Shown piece by piece: positions 9,280-58,563 of a stretch of DNA of 64,000 nucleotides. Each line of letters opens with the position of its first letter. Position 1 is the first letter of the stretch. Position numbers and translations under genes: made by a program. This DNA comes from Candidatus Kerfeldbacteria bacterium RIFCSPLOWO2_02_FULL_42_19 (GTDB lineage: Bacteria; Patescibacteriota; Patescibacteriia; HO2-48-17): assembly GCA_001818315.1 (NCBI GenBank), contig MHKF01000006.1, positions 17,148 through 81,147 of the forward strand. Direction: 5' to 3'. Below the pieces are notes generated by a model. It did no database searches, was not told where the DNA came from, and was given only the letters and a program-made list of their open reading frames with translations.

Positions 9280-9353
9280 GTCCCCGTAGCTCAAATGGAA
9301 AGAGCAACTCCCTTCTAAGGAGTAGGTTGCATGTTCGATTCATGCCGGGGACG
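9280..9353 (+). tRNA. tRNA-Arg(TCT)
   Basis: A manual cloverleaf gives acceptor GTCCCCG/CGGGGAC, D arm GCTC-AAATGGAAA-GAGC, anticodon arm ACTCC-CTTCTAA-GGAGT (anticodon TCT), T arm GCATG-TTCGATT-CATGC, and discriminator G. CCA is not encoded. Confidence 0.7.
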
Positions 9354-9384
9354 CCGCAAAACATATGCTATACTTACTTTTGAT

Positions 9385-9456
9385 GGTGGCCATGGTGTAG
9401 TGGTAACACGCGGGGCTGTGGACCCCTCATCGAGGGTTCAATTCCCTCTGGTCACC
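9385..9456 (+). tRNA. tRNA-His(GTG) with an encoded G-1
   Basis: G-1 at 9385 pairs with discriminator C. The acceptor is GTGGCCA/TGGTCAC with one G-U. The D arm is GTGT...ACAC. The anticodon loop is CTGTGGA (GTG). The T arm is GAGGG-TTCAATT-CCCTC. The anticodon stem has one mismatch, so this should be confirmed with tRNAscan-SE. Confidence 0.55.
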
Positions 9457-9480
9457 CACACATACGTTTCCAAATCTCTC

Positions 9481-38000: not shown

Positions 38001-41000
38001 GCCACAGCAGCATATTCGGAATATGCGAGTATCAACACAATACATCTCAATGGGCAGCGTTTGAGTTGCGAACCAAAAGATCTTGGTTGCGAGGCATATA
38101 CGGATGTCAAAGACAAAAGCGTTATTCCGGCAGTGATCACGAATCCAGTTTCAGAACTTTGTACCCAAGGGGTTAATAAAGATTACTCCAAAGCAAGTTG
38201 TAATCAGTGTGATCAAGGGCAAGTCGGGTGCGATTTCTATGAGGAAGTGCCGCTTAAGAATCAACCGCCAGATCCACTCGCGCCCGAAAGAACTGGTTTT
38301 TACTGTTCCAATTATCCAAATAGTGAAGCGCGAAGTTGCACCCCAGCATATTGCGACAATAATCCAAGTATTCTCTGTGATCCAACCGCTGATATTAATA
38401 CCCTTCGTGTCGTATGTGGACATAGTAATCCGACATGTGTGAACTCCGCGCCAGCGCAGTGCGGCGATCCAAGTGCAACATGTTTGCCACAAGTTTCGAT
38501 CATCCCGAAAACCGGTAAAAAATGTCGCGCTCAATACGTAGGCTGTGAAGAATACACGAATCTCGACATCGTAGGACAAGGCGGTGAAGGTTTGGAATAC
38601 TATAATCGTATCAAACAATGCGTTAAACCTGTTGATGGCGATCCGACGCAAGGCACGTACTACACTTGGGTCGGTTCAGAGACCGCTGGATATCAACTCA
38701 AAGCATTCAAACTCAAAAAGAGTAATATTACAGATCATAGCTTTTGCCCGGGTAATCAACAGATTTGTGATGTGAATGACATGATTAATGAAACAGGGAC
38801 AGCGCCTTGTACGCAACTTGATGTTGGTGATACTGCGAATCCAAACGCTGATTGCCAAGATACGATACAAGGTGATCCCGCAACATGTATAGAAGCAGAT
38901 CTTGAGACGAATCCAGACTGCGGACAATTCTACGATAGCGGTGGAAATATTTTCTACCGTTTGCGTTCGCGAGTGATTAGCGTTTCTGAAGAATGCAATC
39001 CCTTGCGCAGCACGATTGATAACAACGTTTACTACGCGATTCGATCACAGAGTAAAGTATGTCCCGCGCAAATGAACGGCTGCCGAGAATATAAAGGCAG
39101 CGCAGGGAACAACGTGCGCATACTCCTCCAAGAGAATTTCGAAAATACTACTTTTGAGGGAGCAGGGCTGAGCAATGAAGGCGCGATCGCCGGTTTCGGC
39201 GACCAGTCGATGGAGATTCGCATGGAAAATAACACAGATCCCAATGAAGGCTTTACTGATATACCGCAAACGCTCCTTACCAAAGGCAACGCCTACATCG
39301 TTTCGTTCTGGGCACGCAGCGGCACAAGTTCTGAAACAAATACACTCACAGTCAGCGCGATCTTCCGCAAGAAAGATGGCAGTGGCGTTCTCGAATTCGG
39401 CGAAACAACCCTCGAGCCGACGAATGACTGGAATTTGTACCGACTCGGTCCACTTGTTTTTGATCGCGAAGTTACCGATCAAGAAGTCTTTGCAATTCGC
39501 CTTAATCCACAAGACGCCAGTTACCCAAAGAGTCTTCAAATCGATAACCTCAAAATCACCGACAGCACGAGTCAATACCTGATTAAAGGCAGCGCGGCTA
39601 TTTGTCCAAAATTTGAAGGCTGTCGGGAATACTCAGATAGACAAGGCCGCACGAATTATCTCAAGTCGTTCACGCGGCTGTGTGAGCAGCGTTTCCTCGG
39701 CTGCGAAATTGCACTTGATACGCAGAATTCAAATCTCCCATTTGCTCAAAGTTTTAACTTAAACAACCCTGAAAAAGATCCGCAAGGTAAAGATGACGTT
39801 ATTGTTCCAGCGGATCAAGCGACACTTGTCGTAAATAATCCGAATAACTTTTGTTTTGCGACGGCTGAAGGTTGTAGCGCGCTCGGCTCCCCGAACGAAA
39901 ATAAGCAAGAAAACAAAATCGACGGATTTAGTACGACATATCGGATTAAAGATCCGGATAATTACGGTACGACATTGTGTCAGGATCATCAGATCATGTG
40001 TCGCGAATACCAATACGGAGAGACTCAATATTATTTCAAAGACCCCGGCAATAAGGCCTGTGAATATAGAATCGTGGGGCAGGATTTTAGTCCATCCGCA
40101 CCGAGTAACGATATATACGGCTGGGCAAAATTTGGTAAAGACGAAGGCTGTCCATTATTCAATCCATATGATTTTCCATCACGACCAAGCGGTTCCGTGT
40201 GTGCCGCGGGCGATCGTGTAGGTCAGCCGTGTCAACGAGACAGCGAATGTCCGGTAAGTTTCTGCACGAGCGATATTGCAGATGATCCAACAACACCAAA
40301 TACTGACGAAAGTCGCGGTTGGGTAGGTGCGTGTCCCGAAAGCGCTGATTCGTGCACATTGTATCTGGATACCTACGGCACGAATCCACGTGACGAAGAA
40401 ATTTTGAATTCAAGTTTCGAAACCGATGTACGTAATAACGCAACAGGAGAATACACTCCCGACAATATTCCTGATGATTGGCATCTCACCGCCTGCAGTG
40501 ACGGAACTTGCACGATCGCACGTGAAACCGGTCAGATTCGTAGCGGCGAAGCAAGTCTCAAAATCGAAGGAGGAGTAGGCAATCCAACCTTTACCATCGC
40601 AAGTGAACCCATGCGTGTGGATTCCAACGATATTTATACCCTGCGTGGCTATGTCCGGAAAAATTTCAATGGCATATTTGATCTTGGTCTCGCTTTCTTC
40701 GATCGTGATGGCAATCTCATAAGCGAAAATCCATTTATTGCTGCAAAACAAGAAGCGCTTACCGATCTGTCAGAAAAATGGGTTGCCTTTCAAGGAACGA
40801 TTGGTCCAACACAAAAAGGACCCGAACTCGCATTGGTGGAGTTCCCGCAAGATACTTTGGAAGTCAAGATTCTCATTGGTGGTACGACCGGTAGTGGCGG
40901 CATTTTTGTCGATGATGTTTCGTTCGATCACAACGACGAATATTATTATCTCGAAAACAGCGTCGACACCAAAAGCTGTCGAGGAAACGCAAATCGGGAT

Positions 41001-44000
41001 GATGGATGTGTAGTTTTGAATAACGTCACACAAAGTACACAAAATTATCGGGCTGATGATCCACGCACGCCGTTCGATGAATCAAAGTCTATCACGAGAA
41101 CCGAAGGCTACGACCCCGCGATTGCGAGTTGCGAACTCAATAGCATCGATGAAAGTAACACATGCCGCTGGAAACCAAACGCAGGAGTCGGAAATCAGGT
41201 GATTAAGGTGCGTCCAGATCGCGATTGCAAAGAATGGCTCGCCTGTTCGAGCGCCTACGCCGTAGAAAATCCGGACACTCGAGCGAAAGATTACTACTGC
41301 TTCGATGTTGGTCGCTGTCGTAATCTCTCAGAGGACGGTGTGTGCAATGACTGGGTTTACAAACCCGACCGCTACGAACTGACTGAAGAAAATATGACCG
41401 AAGTCAATTCGGCGCCGGGAGACACCGAAGAGCTTGAAAAAATACAGAATCTTACTGGGTACGTAAAAGCAGGTCTCAAAGCAGTCGTACCAAATCCACA
41501 AGGTGGGAGTTCACCAGCTCGTATCAAAGGATATTATACTTTCGACGCGATGCCGCAGGTAGGAATCTCTGGTAGGAATTCTTCACGTGACATTGTGTAC
41601 AGTGGAAGATTCGAAAACACATTCTGCGCTCAAGGGAGTATCGGCGCGTCTTGCACACTCGATCAACACTGTCGTAGAGTCGATCCGGCAACAGGGCAAC
41701 TTACAGATACAGAACCTGGAGCTTGCGTCAATCCACCCCGCGGTTGGTCAAAAACTGGCGGAGAAGGCAACAGCATTCAGGTGATTGATTTTGATGAGAC
41801 GATCGCACTGCCGTATGAAACCGCCCCAGAAACGATTCAAGTAGATTTACCTAATGTCTTGAAGGTCGTACCAAGTGGGGAACAAAGTAACGGTGCACAG
41901 TTGATGTTGCAGGATGATCTCATTCAACCCAATGGAGAGTATGTTCTTTCTTTTGACGGGCGCTATTTTACCGCGCCGACAGATGACGACACGTTGCGCA
42001 TTGGATTTTCCTATAACACAACCTGCAATGAAACAAGTTGCACGCGGGATAAAGTAGACATGTTCTCCGACGTGTGTCGTGGCGGAGTTCGTGACGGCCT
42101 TTTCTGCGACATCAACGCAGGTCAAAAACGATGCGCGGGTGGAGATAATAACGGCGATGAATGTAGCGCCGAAATAGATTGTCCAAACGGAACCTGCACC
42201 GCAAAAGTATGCATCAATGCAGGAGGAAACACGGGCCAGTCCTGTCTGGATGTGGACATTTGCCGTGTAGGACTCCCAATAGAGGAAGTAGGATTAGCGC
42301 GCTGCGGTGTGCCCTCCAACTGTCCTGATGGCGAATGTGTCCAAGATGCATTCAAAATGACTGGACAGATGCAACGCTATACTCTTGGCCCCGTCATGGT
42401 AAGTAATAAACCAACGGTGAAAGAACTTCGGTGTTCGAATGACATCAATAGTAGTTGCGTCAACGATGATGACTGTTCGGAAGATGGCATTTGTATCGAG
42501 CTTTCCACAACATTACTCTTCTTTGAACAAAGAGCAGCGAGTGCAAACACACCTTTCTTAATAGATAATGTTTCCTTGAAACCAGTACTGGAAGTGAGTA
42601 AAATTGTTGGTCTCGTTTCGCGCAACTGCCGAAGTTATCCGCGAGAAAATGCTCTCGGTTGCGATTACTTAGACATTAACCGTATTACCTATCGCGGATG
42701 GTATGGTTATTGTCTGGAATATGACCCATTGAATAAAAATCAGTGTTTGGTCTGGTGGCCAGTAGATGTAATCGGTGGAGAATCATCGCTCGCACCGCGT
42801 GTTCGAGCGGGTTACAGCGAACGCACACCTCTGTACATGTGTGTGGCCTCCAGCGGAACGCGTATTCGGGACACAAAGTATTGTGTGAATCATGACAATC
42901 CTGAATATGCCGGCAAAGTCTGTGAGTTGGATAATCAGTGCGGCGGGGGTCGATGTATTACTATGCAGGATACTGGCGAATACTCTCTCTTCCCAAAAGA
43001 TTATACATTCAAAGCAGCATATGATAATAATGGAAAACTTTTTTGCGGTAATACACACTCGCAGGTTTTTGCGTGTACAAGCAGTGTATTAACAGAACAA
43101 CAAGCGATTTTGGAAGATATTGTAGATCGAAAAGTCTGTGTCACACAAACCGAATGTACAACGGACTCTGAATGCGCTGTACAGGTACCGGAAACAGGAC
43201 ACATAACCTATACAAAATGCCTCGATGGCTTTTGTGTTGATACGCGGACATGCGAAAATGATGGTGATTGTCCGAATTCGAGTACCTGCGAACCCTGGTA
43301 TGATGATACGGTACCTGAAGATGAAATTATCATCCCCGGATATTGCGCCGGAAATATGTTTCGGCCGTGTAATATTCGTAATGAAATGAGCGGCGATGCC
43401 ACTAATTCGGATTGTTTTCTATCGGTCGGTGAATTCGGTGAAGAATGTATTCCAGATTTTGATATACCAGAGACCAGAGTGGAAGGAAAAGTGCGAGTAG
43501 CCATTCCTGAATGCGATGAAGATAACCTTCCGGGCGACGACGTGACTATAGTTGATTGGGGTCCATGTATTCCGTCGATTTGTGACTATATGGGTGGCGT
43601 ATGTGCTTCAGAACCAGAGAGTAGTGCAGGACTCCCAACGTATGGTGCTGTGTGTTTTAACGATCCAAGTTTGAGTTGCGGCGACGGTGTCAATTGTCCT
43701 GCAGACGCAGGAAGCTGTGTGTTCTCAACAACCACACGTTGGCAATGTGTTGGTGGAGCGAACGAGGGACTACCATGTACGCAGCACGGTGACTGTGACA
43801 GTAACCTCTGCTCAATGTGGCTACCACGTTTCGATGGCGTAACTGGCAGACTCTATAATTTCGCTGCTCAACTCGAACAGATCCCAGGCTATGCTGATAT
43901 TCAACACGTTATATTTGACACATTTGTTGCTGGTCAGGTTCAACCGAAAGATACTATTATTATTCCTGTAGGATACGTCACAGACCCTGGTTGTAATCAA

Positions 44001-45779
44001 GATAATACCGAATGTGGATATGGCGGTTCAGGTCCTGGTCTTGGAGGCGATAACTATGATATACGCGCGGTCAAGGCAAATGGCGGTATGGTATCTTATG
44101 GATTGAACCCCACTGATAATCCTTTTAACGATATTCCAACAGGTATCCTCTATCAACCGAAAGAAGGTGAAAGCATTGATCAACTTCCACAAGGAGGCGC
44201 CTATGGGAGTGCGAATCCACAGAGAGATCCCCCGGATTTCCTCGTGTGGTCGCAGTCTACTCAGGGTTCAAATAGATGGAGATCTAACGGCCGAGTTGTA
44301 GGTCTCTGGCTTGATAGCGAAAACGGAAAAATAAAAAATGCTTGGGCACTCATCTGGAATGACGGATCTATCAATGAAATTCGCTTCAAATTTGTTCTGC
44401 GTGAATCGTGTCAGTATTTCGCGAAAGTTGTGGATTTCGATGGAAAAAATGTAGCATGGGTGCAACGCTCGAAACGTGGGAGTGCGTATCATGTACCTGA
44501 AGTACTCTTTAATTTTTATCATGATTTCAATCCTTTCGGTGGAATGACTCCGGCCACTGGCGATGATCCACAAACGTGGGATAGTCGAATTCTGACAGAA
44601 ACAAGTCCTGGCGAAGTAGGGAAACAGCCCCCATTTGTAGAGCTTCCGGATGATTATCGTGATCCAGAGCAAGGCATTGATGATGCAGTAGGTGATCCTC
44701 CAGTTTGGCAATTCCGCGCCGGAAGGCCGTATGCGTGTGTAGGGAATTGCGGTGTAGGAAAGTGTGATAATTGGGTCACAGATATATCTTGTACAACGGA
44801 TGCGCGATGTTATCTTGAAGGATCTCACGGACGATGCATTGGGGCCATTGGTATTTGTGTGAATGCCCAGAATCAAGCGGCAGAAAAACCAACATATTGT
44901 AATAACGATCAGAATTGTCGAGACGCAAATCTGCTCTTCCCGATTTGTAAAACGGACTTCCGAAAAAATGGTTATTATTACATCAATAGTAGGGATCGTT
45001 CCGCACAAGAACTGGCGGTTGCAAAAAATGCTGTAGTTGACAGACTGCGATATGTATTTGCGGATATTTTGGAAGTGCTGCGGTATACACAACCCGGAAC
45101 TGGTGTTGATAATTTAGGAGGTTTCGTCACTCTCCCTCCGGAGACACTTTTTACACAAGCTGATGGGTTCACATATTATAAACTGATGCCTATCTGTTCA
45201 GCACCGCGCGGTAATACTGATTACTGTGGCTTGAGACCCGAAGTGAGTCAGATCAAAATGAATGAACTGCCAGAACAGGACAACATGGAAATCGATCTGG
45301 GAAGGGGTGGAGAGGTATCATTAAGTTTTGCTGCTCGTGTTGATTTGGAACAGTATCCATTGAAACATATTGTCATTGACTGGGATGATGGAGCCGATCC
45401 ATTTGTGGATATTTGGGAAGCAGCGCCACTCACGAAACACACATATATTCATGCATATAAGTGTAAAGGACCAGAGGATCCAAATTATAACGCCTATACC
45501 GGCGGCAATCCCGATAGTCGTTGTCATTTTAATCCTAAAATTCGTATCGTCGATAACTGGGATTGGTGTAGTGGAAACGAAATTGCGAATATCGGGCCGG
45601 GGGCAGACATCGCAACAGATCTCACGAATTGCAGTGATCTCGCGCAAGATTGTCGTAATCTTCAGAACGCTGTGGATGACGGAAGTGGCAATAACGGTGA
45701 TAACGGCGAGTGGACCTGTAACACCTGGGATGTGATTGGATCACCTGGCACCCTTGGATTGATTCACGTGAATCCGTAA
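35028..45779 (+). CDS. Giant (3583 aa) secreted cysteine-rich multi-domain surface protein with repeated CBM4_9/galactose-binding-like beta-sandwich modules
   Basis: It is an uninterrupted 10.75-kb ORF. The N-terminal signal-peptide-like segment is KKMLFMSVFTLGVLLQSFMIARPVFAQG. Hundreds of Cys residues occur in recurring motifs (CRAYGYC, CRAQYVGCEEYT, NGCREYKGS, EGCREYSDRQG, MCREYQYGE, LGCEAYTD, GCEKFIST). At least four modules begin with N..FE and carry CBM4_9-type strands, starting near aa 760, 1360 (ENFENTTFEGAG...GNAYIVSFWARSG), 1790 (ILNSSFETD...YTLRGYVRK) and 2290. No LPXTG or other recognised anchor motif is at the C-terminus. Confidence 0.7.
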   Translation: MQVNDARKNKKYTRAHLGWKKMLFMSVFTLGVLLQSFMIARPVFAQGFIGDPFFDPHGFTPAEEINYTAVEPPGGGLPVAVTVDTPGFFRRIMDKIATIAKTIYEKAGRAAVKGMIRVVLTKVAYETAVWIASGDNKQKPLLFTSQWDEYLEDAGDAALGEAFQTLAMKNGYLRFNVCDPFDNRVNLAIQLGLDFATGRPQKPQCTFKEMRERWSEVRDDPAAQKKFLSNFKVSWDIEQNDIGQFLSLQTTFLATQAQKEKSAQLQRQASDPFKDVTGKISQFIETPAQVVAGVQKDAFEKSSNEFLVLVGDPAADALGVFTSTLMSKLLARIKGGVYSFGDLVREDYRNEQGGFVDATAFAPAGGGSGLFNPSGASAPGVAAAEAHYASIADISFSSGDEFQVLADLVACPSEGAQAINCTIDEKFRIAINDRLTVREALDQKLLDGKKPFGFGTQGQPIPNVRDGYSYRSVIVLQRYLIVPVGWKIAAEYIRDFNPGNFTLTDLVSAYDKCGPDNYSPFCGLVDPDWVLKAPANYCRKQGFGNPVAKGEYVDQDGNPATPRKPFIVRQEICVDDQSCIQENPDGTCRAYGYCTEQKRIWRFVGERCEPAYNTCRTLTDTATGQRASLLLNTVNFNDCSRDVAGCQWLCQVFNPLDNDWQCAGNGVVYPTCDAAHDPDGDGNCDGTTGGATCATNPCAIESGRFRCQNTDDEICYLNPESDNPREFNDASISLDRDAPNCDSKNAGCEKFISTRNGTNLINNPSFEYFADNPLDPQPLTFSSEGAGDVLNDNDADVFGFCDGRGGDTHACDDDSDCAGECVGWQSFGAPIVLGVSDPVARGQVAVKFVGTNDAEADTLMYEYESNTELANRSFDLSFRYRKTGGGGACTVKLKYNTDQDSDIATKTLAVNESWTEEKWSTDQLITLPNTRQCYGGNDGSPCTRNSECGGGVCRSDTSLEIRIGVEPAGCELLIDEVKLEEIKPLNFESATATAAYSEYASINTIHLNGQRLSCEPKDLGCEAYTDVKDKSVIPAVITNPVSELCTQGVNKDYSKASCNQCDQGQVGCDFYEEVPLKNQPPDPLAPERTGFYCSNYPNSEARSCTPAYCDNNPSILCDPTADINTLRVVCGHSNPTCVNSAPAQCGDPSATCLPQVSIIPKTGKKCRAQYVGCEEYTNLDIVGQGGEGLEYYNRIKQCVKPVDGDPTQGTYYTWVGSETAGYQLKAFKLKKSNITDHSFCPGNQQICDVNDMINETGTAPCTQLDVGDTANPNADCQDTIQGDPATCIEADLETNPDCGQFYDSGGNIFYRLRSRVISVSEECNPLRSTIDNNVYYAIRSQSKVCPAQMNGCREYKGSAGNNVRILLQENFENTTFEGAGLSNEGAIAGFGDQSMEIRMENNTDPNEGFTDIPQTLLTKGNAYIVSFWARSGTSSETNTLTVSAIFRKKDGSGVLEFGETTLEPTNDWNLYRLGPLVFDREVTDQEVFAIRLNPQDASYPKSLQIDNLKITDSTSQYLIKGSAAICPKFEGCREYSDRQGRTNYLKSFTRLCEQRFLGCEIALDTQNSNLPFAQSFNLNNPEKDPQGKDDVIVPADQATLVVNNPNNFCFATAEGCSALGSPNENKQENKIDGFSTTYRIKDPDNYGTTLCQDHQIMCREYQYGETQYYFKDPGNKACEYRIVGQDFSPSAPSNDIYGWAKFGKDEGCPLFNPYDFPSRPSGSVCAAGDRVGQPCQRDSECPVSFCTSDIADDPTTPNTDESRGWVGACPESADSCTLYLDTYGTNPRDEEILNSSFETDVRNNATGEYTPDNIPDDWHLTACSDGTCTIARETGQIRSGEASLKIEGGVGNPTFTIASEPMRVDSNDIYTLRGYVRKNFNGIFDLGLAFFDRDGNLISENPFIAAKQEALTDLSEKWVAFQGTIGPTQKGPELALVEFPQDTLEVKILIGGTTGSGGIFVDDVSFDHNDEYYYLENSVDTKSCRGNANRDDGCVVLNNVTQSTQNYRADDPRTPFDESKSITRTEGYDPAIASCELNSIDESNTCRWKPNAGVGNQVIKVRPDRDCKEWLACSSAYAVENPDTRAKDYYCFDVGRCRNLSEDGVCNDWVYKPDRYELTEENMTEVNSAPGDTEELEKIQNLTGYVKAGLKAVVPNPQGGSSPARIKGYYTFDAMPQVGISGRNSSRDIVYSGRFENTFCAQGSIGASCTLDQHCRRVDPATGQLTDTEPGACVNPPRGWSKTGGEGNSIQVIDFDETIALPYETAPETIQVDLPNVLKVVPSGEQSNGAQLMLQDDLIQPNGEYVLSFDGRYFTAPTDDDTLRIGFSYNTTCNETSCTRDKVDMFSDVCRGGVRDGLFCDINAGQKRCAGGDNNGDECSAEIDCPNGTCTAKVCINAGGNTGQSCLDVDICRVGLPIEEVGLARCGVPSNCPDGECVQDAFKMTGQMQRYTLGPVMVSNKPTVKELRCSNDINSSCVNDDDCSEDGICIELSTTLLFFEQRAASANTPFLIDNVSLKPVLEVSKIVGLVSRNCRSYPRENALGCDYLDINRITYRGWYGYCLEYDPLNKNQCLVWWPVDVIGGESSLAPRVRAGYSERTPLYMCVASSGTRIRDTKYCVNHDNPEYAGKVCELDNQCGGGRCITMQDTGEYSLFPKDYTFKAAYDNNGKLFCGNTHSQVFACTSSVLTEQQAILEDIVDRKVCVTQTECTTDSECAVQVPETGHITYTKCLDGFCVDTRTCENDGDCPNSSTCEPWYDDTVPEDEIIIPGYCAGNMFRPCNIRNEMSGDATNSDCFLSVGEFGEECIPDFDIPETRVEGKVRVAIPECDEDNLPGDDVTIVDWGPCIPSICDYMGGVCASEPESSAGLPTYGAVCFNDPSLSCGDGVNCPADAGSCVFSTTTRWQCVGGANEGLPCTQHGDCDSNLCSMWLPRFDGVTGRLYNFAAQLEQIPGYADIQHVIFDTFVAGQVQPKDTIIIPVGYVTDPGCNQDNTECGYGGSGPGLGGDNYDIRAVKANGGMVSYGLNPTDNPFNDIPTGILYQPKEGESIDQLPQGGAYGSANPQRDPPDFLVWSQSTQGSNRWRSNGRVVGLWLDSENGKIKNAWALIWNDGSINEIRFKFVLRESCQYFAKVVDFDGKNVAWVQRSKRGSAYHVPEVLFNFYHDFNPFGGMTPATGDDPQTWDSRILTETSPGEVGKQPPFVELPDDYRDPEQGIDDAVGDPPVWQFRAGRPYACVGNCGVGKCDNWVTDISCTTDARCYLEGSHGRCIGAIGICVNAQNQAAEKPTYCNNDQNCRDANLLFPICKTDFRKNGYYYINSRDRSAQELAVAKNAVVDRLRYVFADILEVLRYTQPGTGVDNLGGFVTLPPETLFTQADGFTYYKLMPICSAPRGNTDYCGLRPEVSQIKMNELPEQDNMEIDLGRGGEVSLSFAARVDLEQYPLKHIVIDWDDGADPFVDIWEAAPLTKHTYIHAYKCKGPEDPNYNAYTGGNPDSRCHFNPKIRIVDNWDWCSGNEIANIGPGADIATDLTNCSDLAQDCRNLQNAVDDGSGNNGDNGEWTCNTWDVIGSPGTLGLIHVNP

Positions 45780-45791
45780 TCCGAAACATAT

Positions 45792-48700
45792 ATGGACGAA
45801 GTCAAGAAAACATTTAAAAAGAGAAGTTACAAAAGCCGTCTGAGGCGTTGGATACCGCGCATCACAGCGGCGTGGATGGTGTTGATTATCCTCGCAGCGT
45901 TTGGACAATTTTTTGGGGATCACATTATTCCAGCAGTATTAGCGCAAGATAAGCAAGAACCAGATTGGTTAGCACTTCAAATCGCGAAGATTCTGTTTTA
46001 TGTATTTGTTATTCCATTAGGGACGCTCACGACACTTTTGCTAAGGGTATTAATTTATGTTTCAACGATTGGCACTGGAGAATTTACAAAGACTTCGGGC
46101 GTTGTAGTCGGTTGGGCGCTAGTGCGCGATATCAGCAATATGTTTTTTATTATTATTCTTTTGGTGATTGCTTTCGCGACGGTATTGCGCATCAAAACCT
46201 ATAATTATCAAGCGCTCTTGCCGCGGCTTGTGATCATGGCAGTGCTCATCAACTTTAGTAAAACCATCGCTGGAATCTTCATCGATTTTTCTCAGGTGAT
46301 CATGTTGACGTTTATTAACGCCATGAGAGACGCAGCAGAGGTTGGACTCGCTGGAGTACTGGGACTTGGAGACCTGTTGAATCTTGATCAGTCGGTCTTA
46401 CAGGATCCAAATACCCTAAAGGGTATTACCAATACTCAGGTGATTGTGACCCTTATTGCAGCAATTCTTATGCTAGGAATCGCAGCTGTTACTATTCTGA
46501 TTTTTATTGTTACGCTGGTGTTTCGAGTTGCTATGTTGTGGTTTTTGGTAGTACTTTCGCCACTCGCGTTTCTTTCCTGGACATTTCCTAATGCTCGAAA
46601 GTATTCAGCGCAGTGGTGGGGTGAATTTGGCACTTGGACAACCATTGGTCCCATTACTGCGTTTTTCTTGTGGCTCTCGCTCCTCATTGTAGAAGCATCA
46701 AGGCAAGTATTTGTGGATCCCAATAATCAGGAGAGTCTCTCACTTTCCATACCATTAGTTGATCCAAAAACAGTAACAACAGAGAGCGAATTGAATGTCG
46801 GATTGAGTCGCGCAACGAGTAGCGCAGGGGTTTCAAATTTTATCCTTGCAATTTCACTCCTCCTTGCAAGTCAGAAGTTTATTTCACAAATGAGTACACA
46901 AGCAGGGAGCGTGCTCAGTCGCTTTACCGGAAAAGGTGCGGCCTTCTTAGCAGGCGCCATGATTGGCGCATACAAATGGGGCGGACGCACCGTGGGTGGA
47001 GCAGCATACGGACTTGGTCGCGCTGGAGTACAAGGAATAGATTATGCGGCTGGCGGTATTGGTGGGAGAAATAGATTTCGGCCATTTTTAAGCGATAGAA
47101 TTATTCATGGTGTTTCAGAAGGTCTTTCCGGGGTTCCTCTGATTGGAGGGTCGGTCAGAGAATGGCATGCGAATCGAACGCACCGTCTCCGCGAGGAAGC
47201 AAAGAAAGCCGGTGAATACACAAAATACACCACTTATGCTGAAGCAGAGGATTTGATCGGTTCAATACCATTTACGCGTCCAAGACAAGCAGCGCACCGA
47301 GCGCTCAGTAATAGAATGTTTCACATGATTCCCGGTTTGGATACTGCATTAGGACATTTTGAAAATATGGATACCGACGATATGAAACAGGCAATGCCTC
47401 ATGCATACGCCGCTTTTCGCAATCGAGTTTTTACAACTGGGAGTAACGCACAAATCCAGCGATATCTCCAAGCACTTACTAACGACGCATCTTTTTTTAC
47501 GCATCAAGCAGGAGCTGATCGAGCAAAGGCTGCGGGTTGGAATGCAGCAGCAGCGAGATTCGGGGAAAGAGAAGGCCTTTTGCCCCAACTTGGTGGTGTG
47601 GGTGGAGTACCAGCACCAGCGAATGCTGCGAGATCGGTAATAGGTAATGCTAACTTACCTGTTGGTGATCCTAGCAGACTCGTGGTAGATGAGACTCAGT
47701 TTGGACAGTATGATGCCCAGCTTAGTTTTAATCCGGCACATCCTGAAGCTGGACGCTATCACATGGAAAGGCCTTTTGATCGAGAAAAATATTTGCGAAC
47801 TCTGCGAATGTCACAACAGCAAGGCGACGCGTTGTTTCAATCGCCGGAATTTAATGCGGAGATGTATTATCCGCAGGCTCAGTTTGGAGCTATGCAGAAT
47901 CAGCGAAAAGCTCTGGGACTTGATACGCGTGATCAGCAACTTGCACTTCAGCAGGTTCGCGTTGAGCAACAACTCAACCGCATTGGCGGCGCTGATTCGC
48001 TCATCCGTAAAGGCGAGCGTGGGGACACAATGCACAGCGCAACACTTGCCGTCGATTTTAGCGATGTGCGGAGTCCCGAACTTGCACATATACAGGGCAA
48101 GCTTGGCGCAAATCTTTCGGGGACTGATAAACAAGCGTTTATTCATGAGGTCGCCGGCGCTATGGAAAATGTAGCGACGAACAAAGAAGCAGCTCAAAAA
48201 CAATGGAGCGAGACCGCTGAACCTGAAAAAGAAAAAATTCTACGAACCGCACTGAGTGCGCCTGGAAAATCTAACGCACAAGTACAACAGGAACTTGAAA
48301 GTCTCACTGAAAATCAGGAGATCGAACTTTTTCAAAAATCTCAGAAAGATCGCGCTGCGAAATTCCGTACGCATGCCGGTAGTCTGGATACATTGAGTGT
48401 TATTAACAAGGGTAGAGAGATCGGAGACGCACGCATGATCCTGACACACGAAAAAGCGCATGATGAAATGCACGCGCTTTCAACTGAAGAAAAAGACGAA
48501 GTATGGAGTGCAATTCCACAAGAAGCACAGAAACATCTTACAGAGCAGGTGCAACAAAATTGGGCAGGTCTCAAGGTCGATCCTGCTGATACGCCCGAAG
48601 TCGTGCAACAAAAACAAGCAGATATAAAAGAAGAAGCACTCTCGGAAATTATGGCTTATAGTCGTTTGAAAGGAATCGGAAAGAAAGTGCCGGGTGGAGC

Positions 48701-49670
48701 GGCGGTTACACAGATTGCAGCAGGAGGCGCTTTTGCCGAAGTTTCAAAAGACGTCGCCCTGATGATCAAAGAAAAATCCGAAGCAAAAATGCAAAAAATA
48801 GCTGCGGATCCTGTGCATCAGTTTTTGAAAGGTCAAGGTTTTGGCGGTGCGCCAGAAATAAATTATTCCATCGATGTCGTAGAAAAAGGTCCTGAAGGCA
48901 AAGAGACGGTTGGTGCAAAGTCATTCAATAATTTCACTGATCTTGCTGCGTTCGTACAAGCAAATCCAAATAAACTGACTGAAGAAGCGCGAAAAAATCT
49001 CGCCCAGGGTGCTCCATTTAAAGTTGGAATGAATTCAGGCGCGGCTTCATGGATGAAAAATCTCTCAGAAACGCAAAGGGCAGCCATCGAAAAAAGTTGG
49101 GTGCAAGTGACCGAAAAATTGAGACTTCCTGGCATGACGCAGGCACCGAAGATTCCATTTAAAGAATTACAAGCAACTGCAGCGCCGCGCGAAACACTTC
49201 AAACTGCCGAAGTCACAAAGCAGTCACGTGAAGAAGTATTTGAAATCACAGGGGAAAGTGTAAAGGAGGAAGAAGGGGGAGAAACAGCAGGAGAAGAACT
49301 AGGCGCAACACGTGCTGACATAGAAAAACTTGGGGAAAAAATGAGTCGCATCGAAAGGGGTGTGCGCAAGATTGGACCGAAAGTCGAAGAGACGGCTGGT
49401 AGAGCGGAATATCTGACGCGACTGAAACTGCAAGAAAAGATGGGTGCACCTCTTGAAACAGCGAAAGAAGAAGCTGAAAAGAAGGAATCCGAACGCAAAG
49501 TAGGCGGTCGCATTAGCGCGCTTGAAGAACGCATGAGCGGAAAAGAACCGGAAACACCGCGCGTAACACCAGAAACCAAACCAGAAGCTATCGAAACGCC
49601 AGCAGGTGAAACTCCAACAACAACGATACCACCAAAAGAAACACCACCAACGCCACCGAGTGAATTATAA
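45792..49670 (+). CDS. VirB6/TrbL-like polytopic membrane protein with a ~900-aa hydrophilic C-terminal extension
   Basis: The N-terminal ~400 aa contains about 7 to 8 TM helices arranged like TrbL/VirB6 (ILFYVFVIPLGTLTTLLLRVLIYV, MFFIIILLVIAFATVL, VIVTLIAAILMLGIAAVTILIFIVTLVFRVAMLWFLVVLSPLAFL, and others). The remainder is charged, coiled-coil-like, and ends in a Pro/Thr-rich tail (ETPTTTIPPKETPPTPP). The family call rests on topology and operon context and is inference. Confidence 0.45.
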   Translation: MDEVKKTFKKRSYKSRLRRWIPRITAAWMVLIILAAFGQFFGDHIIPAVLAQDKQEPDWLALQIAKILFYVFVIPLGTLTTLLLRVLIYVSTIGTGEFTKTSGVVVGWALVRDISNMFFIIILLVIAFATVLRIKTYNYQALLPRLVIMAVLINFSKTIAGIFIDFSQVIMLTFINAMRDAAEVGLAGVLGLGDLLNLDQSVLQDPNTLKGITNTQVIVTLIAAILMLGIAAVTILIFIVTLVFRVAMLWFLVVLSPLAFLSWTFPNARKYSAQWWGEFGTWTTIGPITAFFLWLSLLIVEASRQVFVDPNNQESLSLSIPLVDPKTVTTESELNVGLSRATSSAGVSNFILAISLLLASQKFISQMSTQAGSVLSRFTGKGAAFLAGAMIGAYKWGGRTVGGAAYGLGRAGVQGIDYAAGGIGGRNRFRPFLSDRIIHGVSEGLSGVPLIGGSVREWHANRTHRLREEAKKAGEYTKYTTYAEAEDLIGSIPFTRPRQAAHRALSNRMFHMIPGLDTALGHFENMDTDDMKQAMPHAYAAFRNRVFTTGSNAQIQRYLQALTNDASFFTHQAGADRAKAAGWNAAAARFGEREGLLPQLGGVGGVPAPANAARSVIGNANLPVGDPSRLVVDETQFGQYDAQLSFNPAHPEAGRYHMERPFDREKYLRTLRMSQQQGDALFQSPEFNAEMYYPQAQFGAMQNQRKALGLDTRDQQLALQQVRVEQQLNRIGGADSLIRKGERGDTMHSATLAVDFSDVRSPELAHIQGKLGANLSGTDKQAFIHEVAGAMENVATNKEAAQKQWSETAEPEKEKILRTALSAPGKSNAQVQQELESLTENQEIELFQKSQKDRAAKFRTHAGSLDTLSVINKGREIGDARMILTHEKAHDEMHALSTEEKDEVWSAIPQEAQKHLTEQVQQNWAGLKVDPADTPEVVQQKQADIKEEALSEIMAYSRLKGIGKKVPGGAAVTQIAAGGAFAEVSKDVALMIKEKSEAKMQKIAADPVHQFLKGQGFGGAPEINYSIDVVEKGPEGKETVGAKSFNNFTDLAAFVQANPNKLTEEARKNLAQGAPFKVGMNSGAASWMKNLSETQRAAIEKSWVQVTEKLRLPGMTQAPKIPFKELQATAAPRETLQTAEVTKQSREEVFEITGESVKEEEGGETAGEELGATRADIEKLGEKMSRIERGVRKIGPKVEETAGRAEYLTRLKLQEKMGAPLETAKEEAEKKESERKVGGRISALEERMSGKEPETPRVTPETKPEAIETPAGETPTTTIPPKETPPTPPSEL

Positions 49671-51334: not shown

Positions 51335-51784
51335 ATGCAATTTGTGGTTCCGCAGTTTATTGAAGTCGAAAACAAAATTATCGGTCCGATTTCAACAAGA
51401 CAATTCATTCTCCTGGTAATTCTGGGAGTTATTGAATTTTTACTCTTTCGACTTGCGCCGGTATGGATGTTTATTATCGGTGGCGTCATTACGCTTGTAA
51501 TGTTTATCACCCTTGCTTTTGTGAAAGTGAACAGTCAGCCTTTTCATTTATTTCTCCTGGCAATTATCCAAACACTCAAAAAACCATCACAAAGAGTGTG
51601 GACCAAAGCAGGACACTATCAAGAAAAGAAAAAGAGCAAAGAGAAAGAGTCGCTTCCAAAAAGTATTCCAATCAAGCCACATTTTACACGCTCAAGACTT
51701 GCAGAACTTTCGCTGGTGGTCGATACCGGCGGCGCATATCGTGATACAGAAGTGTTCAATCTCAATCCATTCAAACATCAATAA
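51335..51784 (+). CDS. Small two-TM membrane protein, VirB3/PrgI/TcpE-like by position and topology
   Basis: The 149-aa protein begins MQFVVPQFIEVENKIIGPISTRQFILLVILGVIEFLL, with a second TM at WMFIIGGVITLVMFITLAFV. It lies immediately upstream of the VirB4 pieces, as in MPF-FA type systems. Confidence 0.4.
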   Translation: MQFVVPQFIEVENKIIGPISTRQFILLVILGVIEFLLFRLAPVWMFIIGGVITLVMFITLAFVKVNSQPFHLFLLAIIQTLKKPSQRVWTKAGHYQEKKKSKEKESLPKSIPIKPHFTRSRLAELSLVVDTGGAYRDTEVFNLNPFKHQ

Positions 51785-51789
51785 AAAAC

Positions 51790-52473
51790 ATGCATTCACA
51801 AAAGTTGGCACAAGGTCGCATCACAAAATCGGTGCAAAAATATATCGACATTTATGAAATTAAGGATGATGTCGTGGTATTGAAAGATGGTTCCATGCGA
51901 GGCGTACTGCTTGTTTCGAGTATCAATTTTGCTTTGAAATCAGAAGAAGAACAAAGCGCCATTATCCAATCTTACGTCCAATTCCTCAACTCCCTTAATT
52001 TTCCTTTGCAGATCGTTATACAATCCCGCAGGCTTAATATCGAAGCCTATCTCGAACGCCTCAAAAACATCGAAAGAGAACAAACAAACGAACTCCTGCG
52101 AATCCAAACAGCCGATTACCGAAAATTCGTCGGAGAACTCGTAGAAATTGCCGATATCATGAGTAAACATTTTTACGTAGCTATACCGTATTCCCCGTAT
52201 CATAAAGGAGAAAAAAAAGGTTTTTTTTCAAGATTCGGTGAAGTGTTTTCGCCAGCGACCGTAATTACGCTCCAGAGACAAAAATTTGAAAAATACAAAC
52301 AAGAGCTCGAAAGAAGAGTATCACTCGTAAGCGATGGATTGGCTTCTATGGGACTGACATCCGTCATGTTGGATACGCAAAGTCTTATTGAGTTGTATTA
52401 CAATACCTATAATCCCACTATGTACGAGCATCAGCGTTTAACGGATCTCAACGCGATCCAAGTAGTTGAATAA
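51790..52473 (+). CDS. VirB4/TrbE/CagE N-terminal domain as a separate 227-aa ORF (split VirB4)
   Basis: IDIYEIKDDVVVLKDGSMRGVLLVSSINFALKSEEEQSAIIQSYVQFLNSLNFPLQIVIQSRRL matches the CagE_TrbE_VirB N-terminal domain pattern. It stops with TAA 2 nt before the ATG of the ATPase ORF, in a different frame. Confidence 0.55.
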   Translation: MHSQKLAQGRITKSVQKYIDIYEIKDDVVVLKDGSMRGVLLVSSINFALKSEEEQSAIIQSYVQFLNSLNFPLQIVIQSRRLNIEAYLERLKNIEREQTNELLRIQTADYRKFVGELVEIADIMSKHFYVAIPYSPYHKGEKKGFFSRFGEVFSPATVITLQRQKFEKYKQELERRVSLVSDGLASMGLTSVMLDTQSLIELYYNTYNPTMYEHQRLTDLNAIQVVE

Positions 52474-52475
52474 AT

Positions 52476-54311
52476 ATGCCACAAGAGATTGTAAAAACAG
52501 TACAAACCACAATCGATAAAAAACAGGAAAAGCAAATTCTCGAAGCCGAACGCGTATTCCGGCGAGGAGAAATATCCGTGCGCGATCTCATTGCACCAGC
52601 AGCAATGAAAGTGAGTCCACGTGCTCTGGATATCGGTGGGAAACTCGCAAGCACACTCTTTGTGATCACGTATCCCCGATACATCGGCGTCGGCTGGTTT
52701 ACGCCCATCGTGATCTTGAATCTTCCTATCGACATCGCGATGTTTTTTTACCCTGTTGCTTCCGATATCGTACTCAAGCAGCTGCGCAATAAAGCAGGTG
52801 CCATCGAAGCTCAACTCCTTTCGGATGCAGAAAAAGGAGCGCCTCGTGATCCCATTCGCGAAACAGCGTTAAAGGACATCGAACAACTCCGCGATAATCT
52901 TGTGCAAGGTACCGAGCGATTTTTTCAATTTGCGCTCTATGTGACCGTATACGCTGATAACGAAAAGCAACTCGAAGAACGTGTTGAAAAAATAGAAAAT
53001 ATCTTCGGATCACGACTCGTGTATGTGAAGCGGGTGCTCTATCAAGCAGAACAAGGATTCAATTCAACAATGCCACTCGGCAATGACGAAATTGCCGTAT
53101 ATTTCAACATGAATTCTTCGCCATGCGCATCGTCATTTCCTTTTACTTCAGCTGAACTCACGAGCGATGAAGGGGTGCTCTTTGGAATCAATCGGCACAA
53201 CAATAGCCTCGTGCTTTTTGATCGTTTTTCACTGCAGAATGGCAATGCAGTCGTTTTTGCAACAGCAGGTGCTGGAAAAAGTTATGCGGTGAAACTTGAA
53301 GTTTTGCGAAGTTTGATGTATGGCACCGACATTATTATCATCGACCCAGAACGCGAATATAAATACCTCTCTGATTCTGTTGGCGGGACATTCATCAACA
53401 TTTCGTTGAATTCAGAAGCGAAAATTAATCCTTTCGATCTCCCGCGTCCAGTGGGCGGTGCCGATAGACCAGCGGACATTATTCGATCCTCCGTCATTAC
53501 ATTGAAAGGTTTGATTCGGATCATGGTAGGTAATTTGACGCCAGAAGAAGATTCGCTCGTTGATCGCGCACTCATTGAAACCTACGCGAAAAAAGATATT
53601 ACTGTTGAAAGCGACTTACATTCCATTGACGTACCGACAATGTTGGATTTCCAAGAAATACTTTCGGGTATGGAAGGGGGCGAAGGTTTGCTTTTGAAAA
53701 TAAAAAAGTACACTGAGGGAACGTTTGCCGGACTTTTTTCGAGTCAGACGAATATCGACATGAAAAATCAACTCGTTGTGTTTAGCGTGCGCGATCTTGA
53801 AGATGAGCTTCGGCCGATTGCGATCTATACGATTATGACCTATATTTGGAGTGTCGTACGTTCGCAACTCAAAAAACGAATTCTTGTGATCGATGAAGCG
53901 TGGTGGCTTATGCAGCACGAAGATTCCGCGAAATTTATTTACGCGTTGGTGAAACGATGTCGGAAATATTATCTGGGCGTCACGACGATTACACAGGATG
54001 TGAATGATTTTTTGCGTTCACCTTACGGTCAAGCGATTGTGACGAATTCAGCATTGCAACTCCTCTTAAAACAATCACCGGCATCAATTGATATTGTCGC
54101 AAAAACATTTTTGCTGACACAGGGTGAAAGGTATTTGTTGCTTGAAAGTGGGGTCGGTGAAGGTATTTTTTTCGCAGGCAGCAAACATGCGGCTATTAAA
54201 GTTGTTGCGTCGTATGCAGAAGATCAGATCATTACCTCAGACCCACGGCAGTTGCTCGAAATCGAAAAAGCGAAAAAAGAATTCGAAGAATCTATAGGAA
54301 ATAAACAGTAA
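52476..54311 (+). CDS. VirB4/TrbE-family T4SS ATPase (C-terminal ATPase portion)
   Basis: Walker A is VVFATAGAGKSYAV. Walker B is RILVIDEAWWLM. The downstream TTITQDVNDF motif region and the typical post-Walker A IIIDPEREY are present. Confidence 0.8.
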   Translation: MPQEIVKTVQTTIDKKQEKQILEAERVFRRGEISVRDLIAPAAMKVSPRALDIGGKLASTLFVITYPRYIGVGWFTPIVILNLPIDIAMFFYPVASDIVLKQLRNKAGAIEAQLLSDAEKGAPRDPIRETALKDIEQLRDNLVQGTERFFQFALYVTVYADNEKQLEERVEKIENIFGSRLVYVKRVLYQAEQGFNSTMPLGNDEIAVYFNMNSSPCASSFPFTSAELTSDEGVLFGINRHNNSLVLFDRFSLQNGNAVVFATAGAGKSYAVKLEVLRSLMYGTDIIIIDPEREYKYLSDSVGGTFINISLNSEAKINPFDLPRPVGGADRPADIIRSSVITLKGLIRIMVGNLTPEEDSLVDRALIETYAKKDITVESDLHSIDVPTMLDFQEILSGMEGGEGLLLKIKKYTEGTFAGLFSSQTNIDMKNQLVVFSVRDLEDELRPIAIYTIMTYIWSVVRSQLKKRILVIDEAWWLMQHEDSAKFIYALVKRCRKYYLGVTTITQDVNDFLRSPYGQAIVTNSALQLLLKQSPASIDIVAKTFLLTQGERYLLLESGVGEGIFFAGSKHAAIKVVASYAEDQIITSDPRQLLEIEKAKKEFEESIGNKQ

Positions 54312-56930: not shown

Positions 56931-57665
56931 GTGTATATGAAAAATATTGGCCGTGAAACATTTTTTATCACTCTCAGCATCCTTGCCCTGATTTTTATTG
57001 TCGTGCTCTACGCCTTTGGACAATACCTCATGCAACAACCTGTCAAAACGCAAGCACAACAAACTTCTGATTTACAATATGATCCTTTAATTACGCTTGT
57101 ACCTGAGCAGTATCAAGTGCCGCCAGAAGGTAAATTTGAAATTTCAAATAATGATCCACAGCGTGGGGCCGAAGACGCGCCTGTGACGCTCGTGATTTTT
57201 TCGGATTTCCAGTGCCCGTACTGTTTGGACGCAGAAAATATTATCGCGCAGCTCGAGAAAGATTTTCCAGAAAAAATCCACATCGTCTGGAAAGACTTAC
57301 CGAATCCACGGCTGCATGCGGAAGCAAAGCCCGCAGCAGAAGCAGCGCGCTGCGCACAAAAGCAGGGAAAATTCTGGGAATTTCATGATGCCCTTTTCAA
57401 AAATACAGACAACCTCGCTACCGAACTCTACACAAAAATTGCAACAGACCTTCAGTTAAACTCCGAAGATTTTACAACGTGCGTCGAGTCGCATATGACA
57501 GAATCTCTCATACAAAAAAATTACATCGAAGGAAAATGGCTCGGTATCACCGCAACACCGTATTTTTTTATTAACGACGTGACGGTTTCCGGTGCGCGAG
57601 ACTATGAGTATTTTAAAGATGTCATAACGCAAGAACTCCAAAAGAAAGAGTCGACAATAGAATAA
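56931..57665 (+). CDS. DsbA-like thiol:disulfide oxidoreductase (thioredoxin fold, CPYC active site), membrane-anchored
   Basis: It has an N-terminal TM helix. APVTLVIFSDFQCPYCLDAENII is followed by ...KFWEFHDALF, which is typical of the DsbA family. The start abuts the previous stop with a 0-bp gap. Confidence 0.7.
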   Translation: MYMKNIGRETFFITLSILALIFIVVLYAFGQYLMQQPVKTQAQQTSDLQYDPLITLVPEQYQVPPEGKFEISNNDPQRGAEDAPVTLVIFSDFQCPYCLDAENIIAQLEKDFPEKIHIVWKDLPNPRLHAEAKPAAEAARCAQKQGKFWEFHDALFKNTDNLATELYTKIATDLQLNSEDFTTCVESHMTESLIQKNYIEGKWLGITATPYFFINDVTVSGARDYEYFKDVITQELQKKESTIE

Positions 57666-57669
57666 GTCT

Positions 57670-58563
57670 ATGCAACAACAGAGCAAAAAAAATATATGGA
57701 TTCAAAGATACTTAGGAAGGAGAGGCTATATTCCATTAGTTTTGGGCATACTTTTTGGAATGCTTTTTGCACTGCAGAACTTTGCACTCATTCCTGTTTT
57801 AGCACAAGGTCCGGATCAGCCCGCGAATACTGGTGCGCCAGATGCCGAAGCAGGGCCACTTCTCATTTCACTCGAAATTCCTATTGGTGGAAAAGCGACC
57901 GTAGGGAAACTCGATGAATATATTTCGGAACTCTATACATTTGCTCTCTCATTTATTGGTATTGTCGCGACGATCATGATTATGTGGGGCGGATTTAAGT
58001 GGGTAACAGCAGCAGGAAATTCAGGGAGAATTTCGGATGCTAAGGATACGATTTATAATGCAATTATTGGACTTGTGTTGGCGCTCCTTTCGTGGACTAT
58101 GTTGAATGTGATTAATCCCGCGTTAACATCAAATACGTTTCCAGAAGTGAGACCGATTAAACCAGCATATTCGAAGCTCGCGGACTATGTCGGAGCAAGT
58201 TGTGTGGCAGCTAATGCCGTTGACTCCATGAATATTTGTGAACATTTCAGTCTAGAGGCAACCCAAAACAAAAGTACAGATAGTTTAGTATGTAGTTTTG
58301 ACAGAAAAACTGGTGCTCAGGCATTCGATCATTGCACGATGAAACTATGTGCTGATACACTGGCGAATTGTGCTGGTACATACCCCGGTAACACTTATAA
58401 TTACAGGAAATGCCTTTGTTTATTGTATCAAAAAGATGAAAGTGACTGTAAAAAAGATAGTGAAACTTGCAAATTTCGGTGTAGTTGGCTGGAAGAACCG
58501 ATAACAAATTTAGAGCAAAGAGCAAATCCATGTTGGCCGGATGGGCTTACGCCAGTGATTTAG
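57670..58563 (+). CDS. VirB2/TrbC-like pilin-fold protein with a ~120-aa cysteine-rich C-terminal extension
   Basis: A signal-peptide-like TM (YIPLVLGILFGMLFALQNFALIPVLAQG) is followed by two hydrophobic helices (LYTFALSFIGIVATIMIMWGGFKWV and IYNAIIGLVLALLSWTMLNVI) separated by a short polar loop (TAAGNSGRISDAKDT), which is the VirB2/TrbC topology. The tail carries about 12 Cys (SCVAAN...ICEH...VCSF...HCTMKLCADTLANCAG...KCLCLLY...DCKKDSETCKFRCSW...PCW). Confidence 0.5.
   Translation: MQQQSKKNIWIQRYLGRRGYIPLVLGILFGMLFALQNFALIPVLAQGPDQPANTGAPDAEAGPLLISLEIPIGGKATVGKLDEYISELYTFALSFIGIVATIMIMWGGFKWVTAAGNSGRISDAKDTIYNAIIGLVLALLSWTMLNVINPALTSNTFPEVRPIKPAYSKLADYVGASCVAANAVDSMNICEHFSLEATQNKSTDSLVCSFDRKTGAQAFDHCTMKLCADTLANCAGTYPGNTYNYRKCLCLLYQKDESDCKKDSETCKFRCSWLEEPITNLEQRANPCWPDGLTPVI

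Follow-up and report, generated by a model that had tools for sequence, protein, structure and literature searches.

What does it mean that the gene for VirB4, the ATPase of type IV secretion systems (T4SSs), appears in two pieces? The question is raised by a 64-kb chromosomal stretch of Candidatus Kerfeldbacteria (the window, hereafter), in which an earlier note had described VirB4 as two adjacent open reading frames (ORFs), the first ending with TAA 2 nt before the ATG of the second, in a different frame. Three explanations had been offered: VirB4 might naturally be made as two polypeptides, the frameshift might be a programmed one, or the gene might have been broken, by a pseudogenising frameshift or by an error of sequencing. 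The ORF list and the sequence confirm the geometry of the junction, and the two ORFs, of 227 aa and 611 aa, cover VirB4 profiles in a complementary manner. We consider it very probable that this VirB4 is bipartite by nature, encoded by two tightly packed genes of one operon whose two polypeptides would jointly form the motor. The features concerned are as follows.

51335..51784, + strand: small membrane protein of the PrgI family (VirB3-like), 149 aa; Pfam PF12666, E 9.6e-9, 36.1 bits vs a cut-off of 27
51790..52473, + strand: ORF1, 227 aa, ATG start, TrsD-like; VirB4 N-terminal and TrsD/TraD profile matches
52471..52478, + strand: gene junction TAA-AT-ATG, i.e. ORF1 stop, 2-nt spacer, ORF2 start
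52476..54311, + strand: ORF2, 611 aa, ATG start, short VirB4; NF045971 match
53259..53282, + strand: Walker A motif ATAGAGKS, ORF2 residues 262-269; G265, G267, K268 and S269 invariant in 50 homologs
53880..53897, + strand: Walker B motif ILVIDE, ORF2 residues 469-474; I472, D473 and E474 invariant in 50 homologs

Among the full-length VirB4 models of NCBIfam, ORF1 matches N-terminal positions only: 105-209 of 894 in NF045975, the VirB4 of Mycoplasma integrative and conjugative elements (ICEs) (E 7e-9), 3-86 of 752 in NF045971, the CD1110-family VirB4 (E 4e-5), and 9-176 of 792 in TIGR00929, VirB4_CagE (E 1e-3). The most conserved part of its family, holding most of the invariant columns, is the peptide given in the earlier note, DGSMRGVLLVSSINFALKSEEEQSAIIQSYVQFLNSLNFPLQIVIQ (ORF1 residues 33-78). 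ORF2 matches full-length models only from position ~169 or 273 onward. With NF045971 it passes the cut-off (347.9 bits vs 325; E 1.1e-103) over profile positions 169-730 of 752, leaving positions 1-165 uncovered, and it is within this uncovered part that the separate polypeptide ORF1 finds its match. The Walker A and B motifs of the ATPase lie on the downstream ORF, as had been claimed.

The cut must fall inside the N-terminal domain rather than at its end, because ORF2 residues 1 to ~225 precede the ATPase C-terminal domain and map to N-terminal profile positions; the first 255 residues of ORF2 correspond to VirB4 profile positions 166-415, not 1-165. The C-terminal domain itself is marked by the alignment of ORF2 residues 228-587 to the VirB4 of Thermoanaerobacter pseudethanolicus (E 9.8e-47; PDB 4AG5, residues 205-588), which is the closest solved relative of ORF2 and the only solved VirB4 from a Gram-positive. 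On these matches, the N-terminal domain is shared between the two: its first half stands apart as ORF1, which is not the whole domain, and its second half is part of ORF2, together with the RecA-like ATPase C-terminal domain. The N-terminal-domain signature claimed for ORF1 thus stands as significant similarity, found with profiles and by fold, while its extent does not, since ORF2 holds the second half. Neither does ORF2 contain a complete N-terminal domain; what it lacks is the segment that ORF1 supplies.

When the two sequences are concatenated, they align to TIGR00929 in one colinear stretch (residues 17-784 on profile positions 10-726 of 792), the outcome sought by the alignment that the earlier note had proposed. 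The scores of ORF1 and ORF2 are additive in three VirB4 models, the concatenate reaching 133.8 bits vs 117.6 for ORF2 alone with TIGR00929, 292.9 vs 256 with NF045975, and 366.1 vs 347.9 with NF045971. That ORF1 might instead duplicate a domain already present in ORF2 was considered and rejected, the two family profiles being unrelated (hhalign probability 0.1%).

Nature has also, though rarely, made the fusion. On metagenomic, Patescibacteria-like contigs, protein P0231 (898 aa) joins a TrsD-like module, a ~90-aa low-complexity Pro/Ala-rich linker and a short VirB4 in a single chain. Residues 3-223 of P0231 share 41% identity with ORF1, and its second part begins at profile position 172. The gene (L034:4001-6697, also in L035 and L036) is identical in contigs from three independent sequencing runs and has a PrgI gene upstream. 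By its domain order, we take this fusion as Rosetta-stone evidence that the halves act together.

Structure comparison agrees with the profiles. The 14 best PDB matches of an AlphaFold2 model of ORF1 (predicted local distance difference test, pLDDT, 70) are all chains of the VirB4 of R388, TrwK, with probability ~1.0 and ~190 aligned columns, the next fold being ~50-fold worse. Sequence searches of PDB with ORF1 alone and with the ORF1 family profile returned nothing meaningful, so that only the fold comparison found VirB4 there. The model of ORF2 (pLDDT 51.5), built on a shallow alignment of sequences at ≥72% identity, was excluded from the fold search. By sequence, ORF2 residues 256-562 align to TrwK 445-741 (E 2.6e-5). 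TrwK has ~445 residues before the region aligned to ORF2 residue 256; ORF2 thus has ~190 fewer residues ahead of the ATPase, a deficit about as large as the structured part of ORF1.

A two-gene arrangement of the same kind is found on the Staphylococcus aureus plasmids pGO1 and pSK41 (MPF-FATA class), whose gene order is that of the window: trsC (VirB3-like), trsD (227 aa) and the gene for TrsE (672 aa). The pGO1 genes for TrsD and TrsE are 14 nt apart, compared with 2 nt for the halves in the window. ORF2 aligns to pGO1 TrsE from ORF2 residue 37 and TrsE residue 36 onward (E 3e-43, 25% identity), and the two start at nearly the same position of NF045975 (265 for TrsE vs 273 for ORF2). Both halves are very divergent from their pGO1 counterparts. 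A comparison of the ORF1 family profile with pGO1 TrsD in hhalign gave E 2.3e-5 and probability 76% over 123 colinear columns, and ORF1 itself matches the TrsD/TraD family NF041427 at positions 7-98 of 201 (26.7 bits, E 4.2e-6), below the curated cut-off of 200; pGO1 TrsD itself scores 227.6 bits. Going by these matches, ORF1 is a distant TrsD homolog outside the narrow staphylococcal subfamily that NF041427 describes. Another model, PF26593 (TraC-like), is assigned in precomputed annotation to a protein identical to ORF1 (P0001) and to all of its 120 best homologs, but our local Pfam-A hmmscan of ORF1 was empty at E ≤ 0.1, a discrepancy probably due to a different version of the local library or to the model being absent from it. 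A literature lead, the "TraD" of pELF linear plasmids, proved unrelated, being a VirD4-type ATPase.

Firmicute megaplasmids have the same three-gene order, with an 11-nt overlap of the halves in Pontibacillus and a 130-nt gap in Clostridium perfringens pJFP838A. The short VirB4s of the window, pGO1, Pontibacillus and C. perfringens all share one starting point on the full-length profiles. The T. pseudethanolicus VirB4 appears to be a short form too: its C-terminal domain begins at residue ~205 (PMC4643968), as compared with ~228 in ORF2. In contrast, R388 TrwK (823 aa), the CD1110-family VirB4 and the Mycoplasma ICE VirB4 carry the N-terminal domain and the ATPase in one chain, in a domain order equal to that of ORF1 joined to ORF2, whereas the window has its cut about halfway through the domain. 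In Lactococcus pNP40, a PrgI gene lies directly 5' of a full VirB4 gene, with no TrsD.

The split is widely conserved. At least 24 contigs carry the exact ORF1 protein together with the identical junction; they stem from separate assemblies and sequencing runs, including NCBI GCA_001818335.1, Logan SRR3989338, SRR2090155 and SRR2090162, and ENA ERZ4903185 and ERZ27254846. A large protein collection yielded 6,468 homologs of ORF1, of which the best 120 are all free-standing, 216-245 aa long, 56-69% identical and from Patescibacteria; after clustering at 50%, 2,455 representatives match ORF1, with lengths of 200-260 aa for nearly all of the best 150. Some longer homologs (300-440 aa) were suspected to be PrgI-TrsD fusions, a notion rejected when the extra length proved to be low-complexity tails. 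The best 120 homologs of ORF2 are all 611-660 aa long. Alignments of homologs hold 29 invariant columns for ORF1 and more than 250 for ORF2, indicating purifying selection on both.

Comparison with orthologous loci, another check that had been suggested, found an ORF1 homolog followed by the ATPase gene in 20 of 22 related genome loci. The PrgI gene again lies 5' of the ORF1 homolog in related loci. The junctions themselves are diverse. Some are TAATG one-base overlaps, others have gaps of 1, 2, 3, 7, 8, 9, 17 or 24 nt, and there are spacers of ~300-340 nt and one case of an extra small gene between the halves; all relative frames (0, 1 and 2) occur.

Several of these relatives have peculiarities of their own. 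(i) The VirB4 halves lie ~300-340 nt apart at L023:4630-4973 and L014:4422-4718. The L023 spacer encodes the extra small ORF, which we presume to resemble the four-helix-bundle / 23S-rRNA-intervening-sequence protein family, and the L014 spacer contains GGCAAAAGG repeats and GC-rich hairpins. (ii) L015 has an ORF1 homolog (59% identity) with no VirB4 gene within 4 kb downstream. (iii) In L011 and L019 the VirB4 homolog is broken over two frames with a middle segment missing; unlike the clean split of the window, these may be genuine pseudogenes or assembly errors. (iv) A Paceibacterales metagenome-assembled genome (JBHIEB010000002.1; L027:4736-8527) encodes a VirB4 homolog of 1,263 aa with an intein inserted at the Walker A region, where Pfam finds Intein_splicing PF14890 as well as a homing endonuclease, LAGLIDADG_3; on either side of the intein, the protein aligns to ORF2 residues 16-269 and 251-600. 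(v) A Haloarcula pelagica plasmid (L033:4983-8935) encodes a 556-aa protein with an ORF1-like N-terminus and, after it, a protein of 761 aa; haloarchaeal plasmids here divide a VirB4-like system in another manner. (vi) Typical Patescibacteria PrgI-TrsD-VirB4 loci, 42-59% identical to the window, occur in L011 and L015, labelled as uncultured Gammaproteobacteria, and in L029, labelled as a Pacearchaeota archaeon; these bins are probably taxonomically mislabelled or contaminated.

In the window, the PrgI gene lies directly 5' of ORF1, within an operon whose order is: genes for proteins of 3,583, 1,292 and 542 aa, PrgI, ORF1, ORF2, three unknown proteins, a DsbA-like protein and a T4SS_pilin protein. 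The last of these is:

57670..58563, + strand: T4SS pilin-domain (VirB2-like) protein, 297 aa; Pfam PF18895 T4SS_pilin, E 3.4e-12

Its presence identifies the locus around it as a Patescibacteria-type T4SS cluster. At 297 aa it is unusually long for a VirB2-like pilin, and the gene directly 5' of it (56931-57665) encodes the DsbA-like thioredoxin protein. At the head of the tightly packed operon stand two giant ORFs, 35028-45779 (3,583 aa) and 45792-49670 (1,292 aa), whose sole Pfam match is a carbohydrate-binding CBM_4_9 domain in the larger protein; these two may be surface proteins or adhesins with a link to the T4SS. RadA is encoded 3' of the operon, and the flanks are of a housekeeping kind (LeuRS, KsgA, PNPase, guanylate kinase and RecG). 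None of the large ORFs in the window yielded a relaxase or coupling protein (T4CP) domain. In this it differs from pGO1, which is conjugative and encodes both a relaxase and a coupling protein of the VirD4 kind. Elsewhere in the window, tRNA-Arg(TCT) and tRNA-His(GTG) genes (9280-9457) overlap the listed 5' end of a CCA-adding/poly(A) polymerase-family ORF (9331-10938), whose true start must be 3' of 9457.

The organism of the window belongs to a group in which such systems have been described. Quinonero-Coronel et al. 2025 (PMC12102498) report a distinct T4SS, akin to the MPF-FATA class of monoderms, that occurs widely among Patescibacteria and mostly lacks a relaxase. In their hidden Markov model search, TrsD was the most abundant T4SS component in Patescibacteria, with 2,272 homologs, 1,664 of them VirB4-associated; it is described there as a remote homolog of the VirB4 N-terminus with no function assigned, and a TrsD homolog is reported as essential in Ca. 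Southlakia epibionticum ML1. The window shares with that system the PrgI, TrsD-like, VirB4 and T4SS_pilin genes in one operon and a housekeeping chromosomal context. The window is an instance of the Patescibacteria-clade T4SS by gene content, context and organism, without substantive difference. The split arrangement of TrsD plus VirB4 is likewise, on that published account, already known as normal and conserved in Patescibacteria and some Gram-positive plasmids, and our result clarifies what was published by a small increment rather than being a discovery. In the passages drawn on here, the paper does not state that the adjacent VirB4 lacks the TrsD portion, nor that the cut point is common with pGO1-type systems. 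Our additions are modest: the adjacent VirB4 lacks precisely the TrsD segment, the cut point is common from pGO1 to Patescibacteria, and naturally re-fused forms exist.

Two of the explanations offered for the junction are rejected on the comparative data. Two frames meeting at one point is the classic look of an indel, as if a pseudogenising frameshift or a sequencing or assembly error had broken a single virB4. Yet the finding of the identical junction on at least 24 contigs from independent assemblies excludes assembly error, and nothing beyond AAA/TAAAT is present at the junction by way of a homopolymer. In thousands of orthologs, diverged to ~40% identity, the split falls at that place too and both ORFs are intact; since the split is inherited at the same place over such deep divergence, with both ORFs under purifying selection, we reject a frameshift mutation, and the whole indel explanation has a negligible likelihood. 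The proximity of the ORFs (2 nt), their different frames and their colinearity with VirB4 would also suit a programmed ribosomal frameshift or stop-codon bypass producing a single 838-aa VirB4. The junction reads GTT GAA TAA-at-ATG CCA (TAA at 52471-52473, ATG at 52476-52478), and a TGA at 52467-52469 in the ORF2 frame limits the overlap of the open frames to only ~4 nt, within which there is no slippery heptamer of the form X XXY YYZ. Immediately beyond the stop, ORF2 has an ATG of its own, as does each of its homologs, and because the relatives differ in frame, in spacer (stop-containing, to ~340 nt) and in the presence of an intervening gene, no shared recoding signal is possible. We therefore hold recoding, too, to be exceedingly improbable. 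The 2-nt spacing is ordinary operon packing, since all gene junctions between 35028 and 58563 are spaced by 0-30 nt. A missing Shine-Dalgarno motif before ORF2 was entertained as a sign of special translational coupling, but it is uninformative: there are almost none upstream of ~40 gene starts in the window (e.g. 51790, 52476 and 54323), the leaders being A/T-rich, and translation initiation in this organism is evidently independent of Shine-Dalgarno pairing.

A more serious contender keeps the two genes and changes the role of the first, making ORF1 an independent T4SS accessory protein of VirB4 N-terminal descent that no longer completes the protomer and serves instead as an assembly factor, regulator or VirB3 chaperone. 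TrsD is without an assigned function, and PMC12102498 places ~27% of Patescibacteria TrsD homologs apart from virB4, notably in Gracilibacteria; our L015 is a further such case. ORF1 also evolves faster than ORF2 (57-68% vs 72-80% identity among the best matches). On the other hand, an accessory protein would not be expected to be strictly colinear, with additive scores, with the full-length VirB4 profiles, nor to supply just the segment that ORF2 lacks; a natural fusion exists in the expected N-to-C order, and the PrgI-ORF1-ORF2 synteny is near-universal. We judge this role for ORF1 improbable.

The naturally bipartite VirB4 that we favour is itself subject to some adverse points. The score of ORF1 is far under the curated NF041427 cut-off (26.7 vs 200 bits). 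Its structural model is of moderate quality (pLDDT 70), with a template modelling (TM) score of ~0.41 to TrwK, and the mapping of ORF1 to the TrwK N-terminus rests on sequence profiles, because Foldseek omits the matched TrwK residues. The ~27% of TrsD homologs not adjoining virB4 may point to some functional independence of TrsD.

If VirB4 is bipartite, ORF1 would account for ~170-200 structured residues at the beginning of the N-terminal domain, and ORF2 for the rest plus the ATPase. The two proteins would associate non-covalently and rebuild a complete VirB4 protomer, in which the ORF1 module may provide membrane-proximal contacts, both with PrgI/VirB3 and between protomers. In solved VirB4 assemblies, protomers are joined through their N-terminal domains, which also sit in the membrane and touch VirB3 and VirB8 (T4SS review PMC12857230); such a contact role for ORF1 follows by analogy. 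The complex would then oligomerise and energise the chromosomally encoded, non-conjugative Patescibacteria T4SS. What the sequences show is that the gene is split, that the split is conserved, that the halves are complementary and that pGO1 TrsD/TrsE have the same cut point; the physical association of the two proteins, their stoichiometry and the part played by ORF1 in VirB3 binding are inferred.

Going further, and more doubtfully, TrsD-like proteins may all go back to a single ancient event that broke the VirB4 N-terminal domain in two. The break would lie at one and the same residue in staphylococcal pGO1-type plasmids, in Firmicute megaplasmids and in essentially all Patescibacteria, the halves having now and then been rejoined by a disordered linker, and the detachment may be functional. 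If so, a detached half-domain that binds VirB3 and links protomers might allow sub-stoichiometric or regulated loading and thereby control assembly of the monoderm T4SS motor. Such a role would assign a function to TrsD, and on this reading the Patescibacteria T4SS would have its origin specifically in the TrsD-bearing sub-lineage of MPF-FATA.

For the Kerfeldbacteria genome, the result implies an intact T4SS motor, and the locus should be treated as functional, with neither gene flagged as a pseudogene. Annotation pipelines name proteins of the ORF1 type "hypothetical" and those of the ORF2 type "TraC/DUF87/VirB4", which hides the two-chain nature of VirB4 in Patescibacteria, where it is an essential machine for epibiotic life. 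The complementarity of the halves and their common cut point give TrsD a concrete and testable role: it would provide the half of the VirB4 N-terminal domain, the first, that the adjacent VirB4 lacks.

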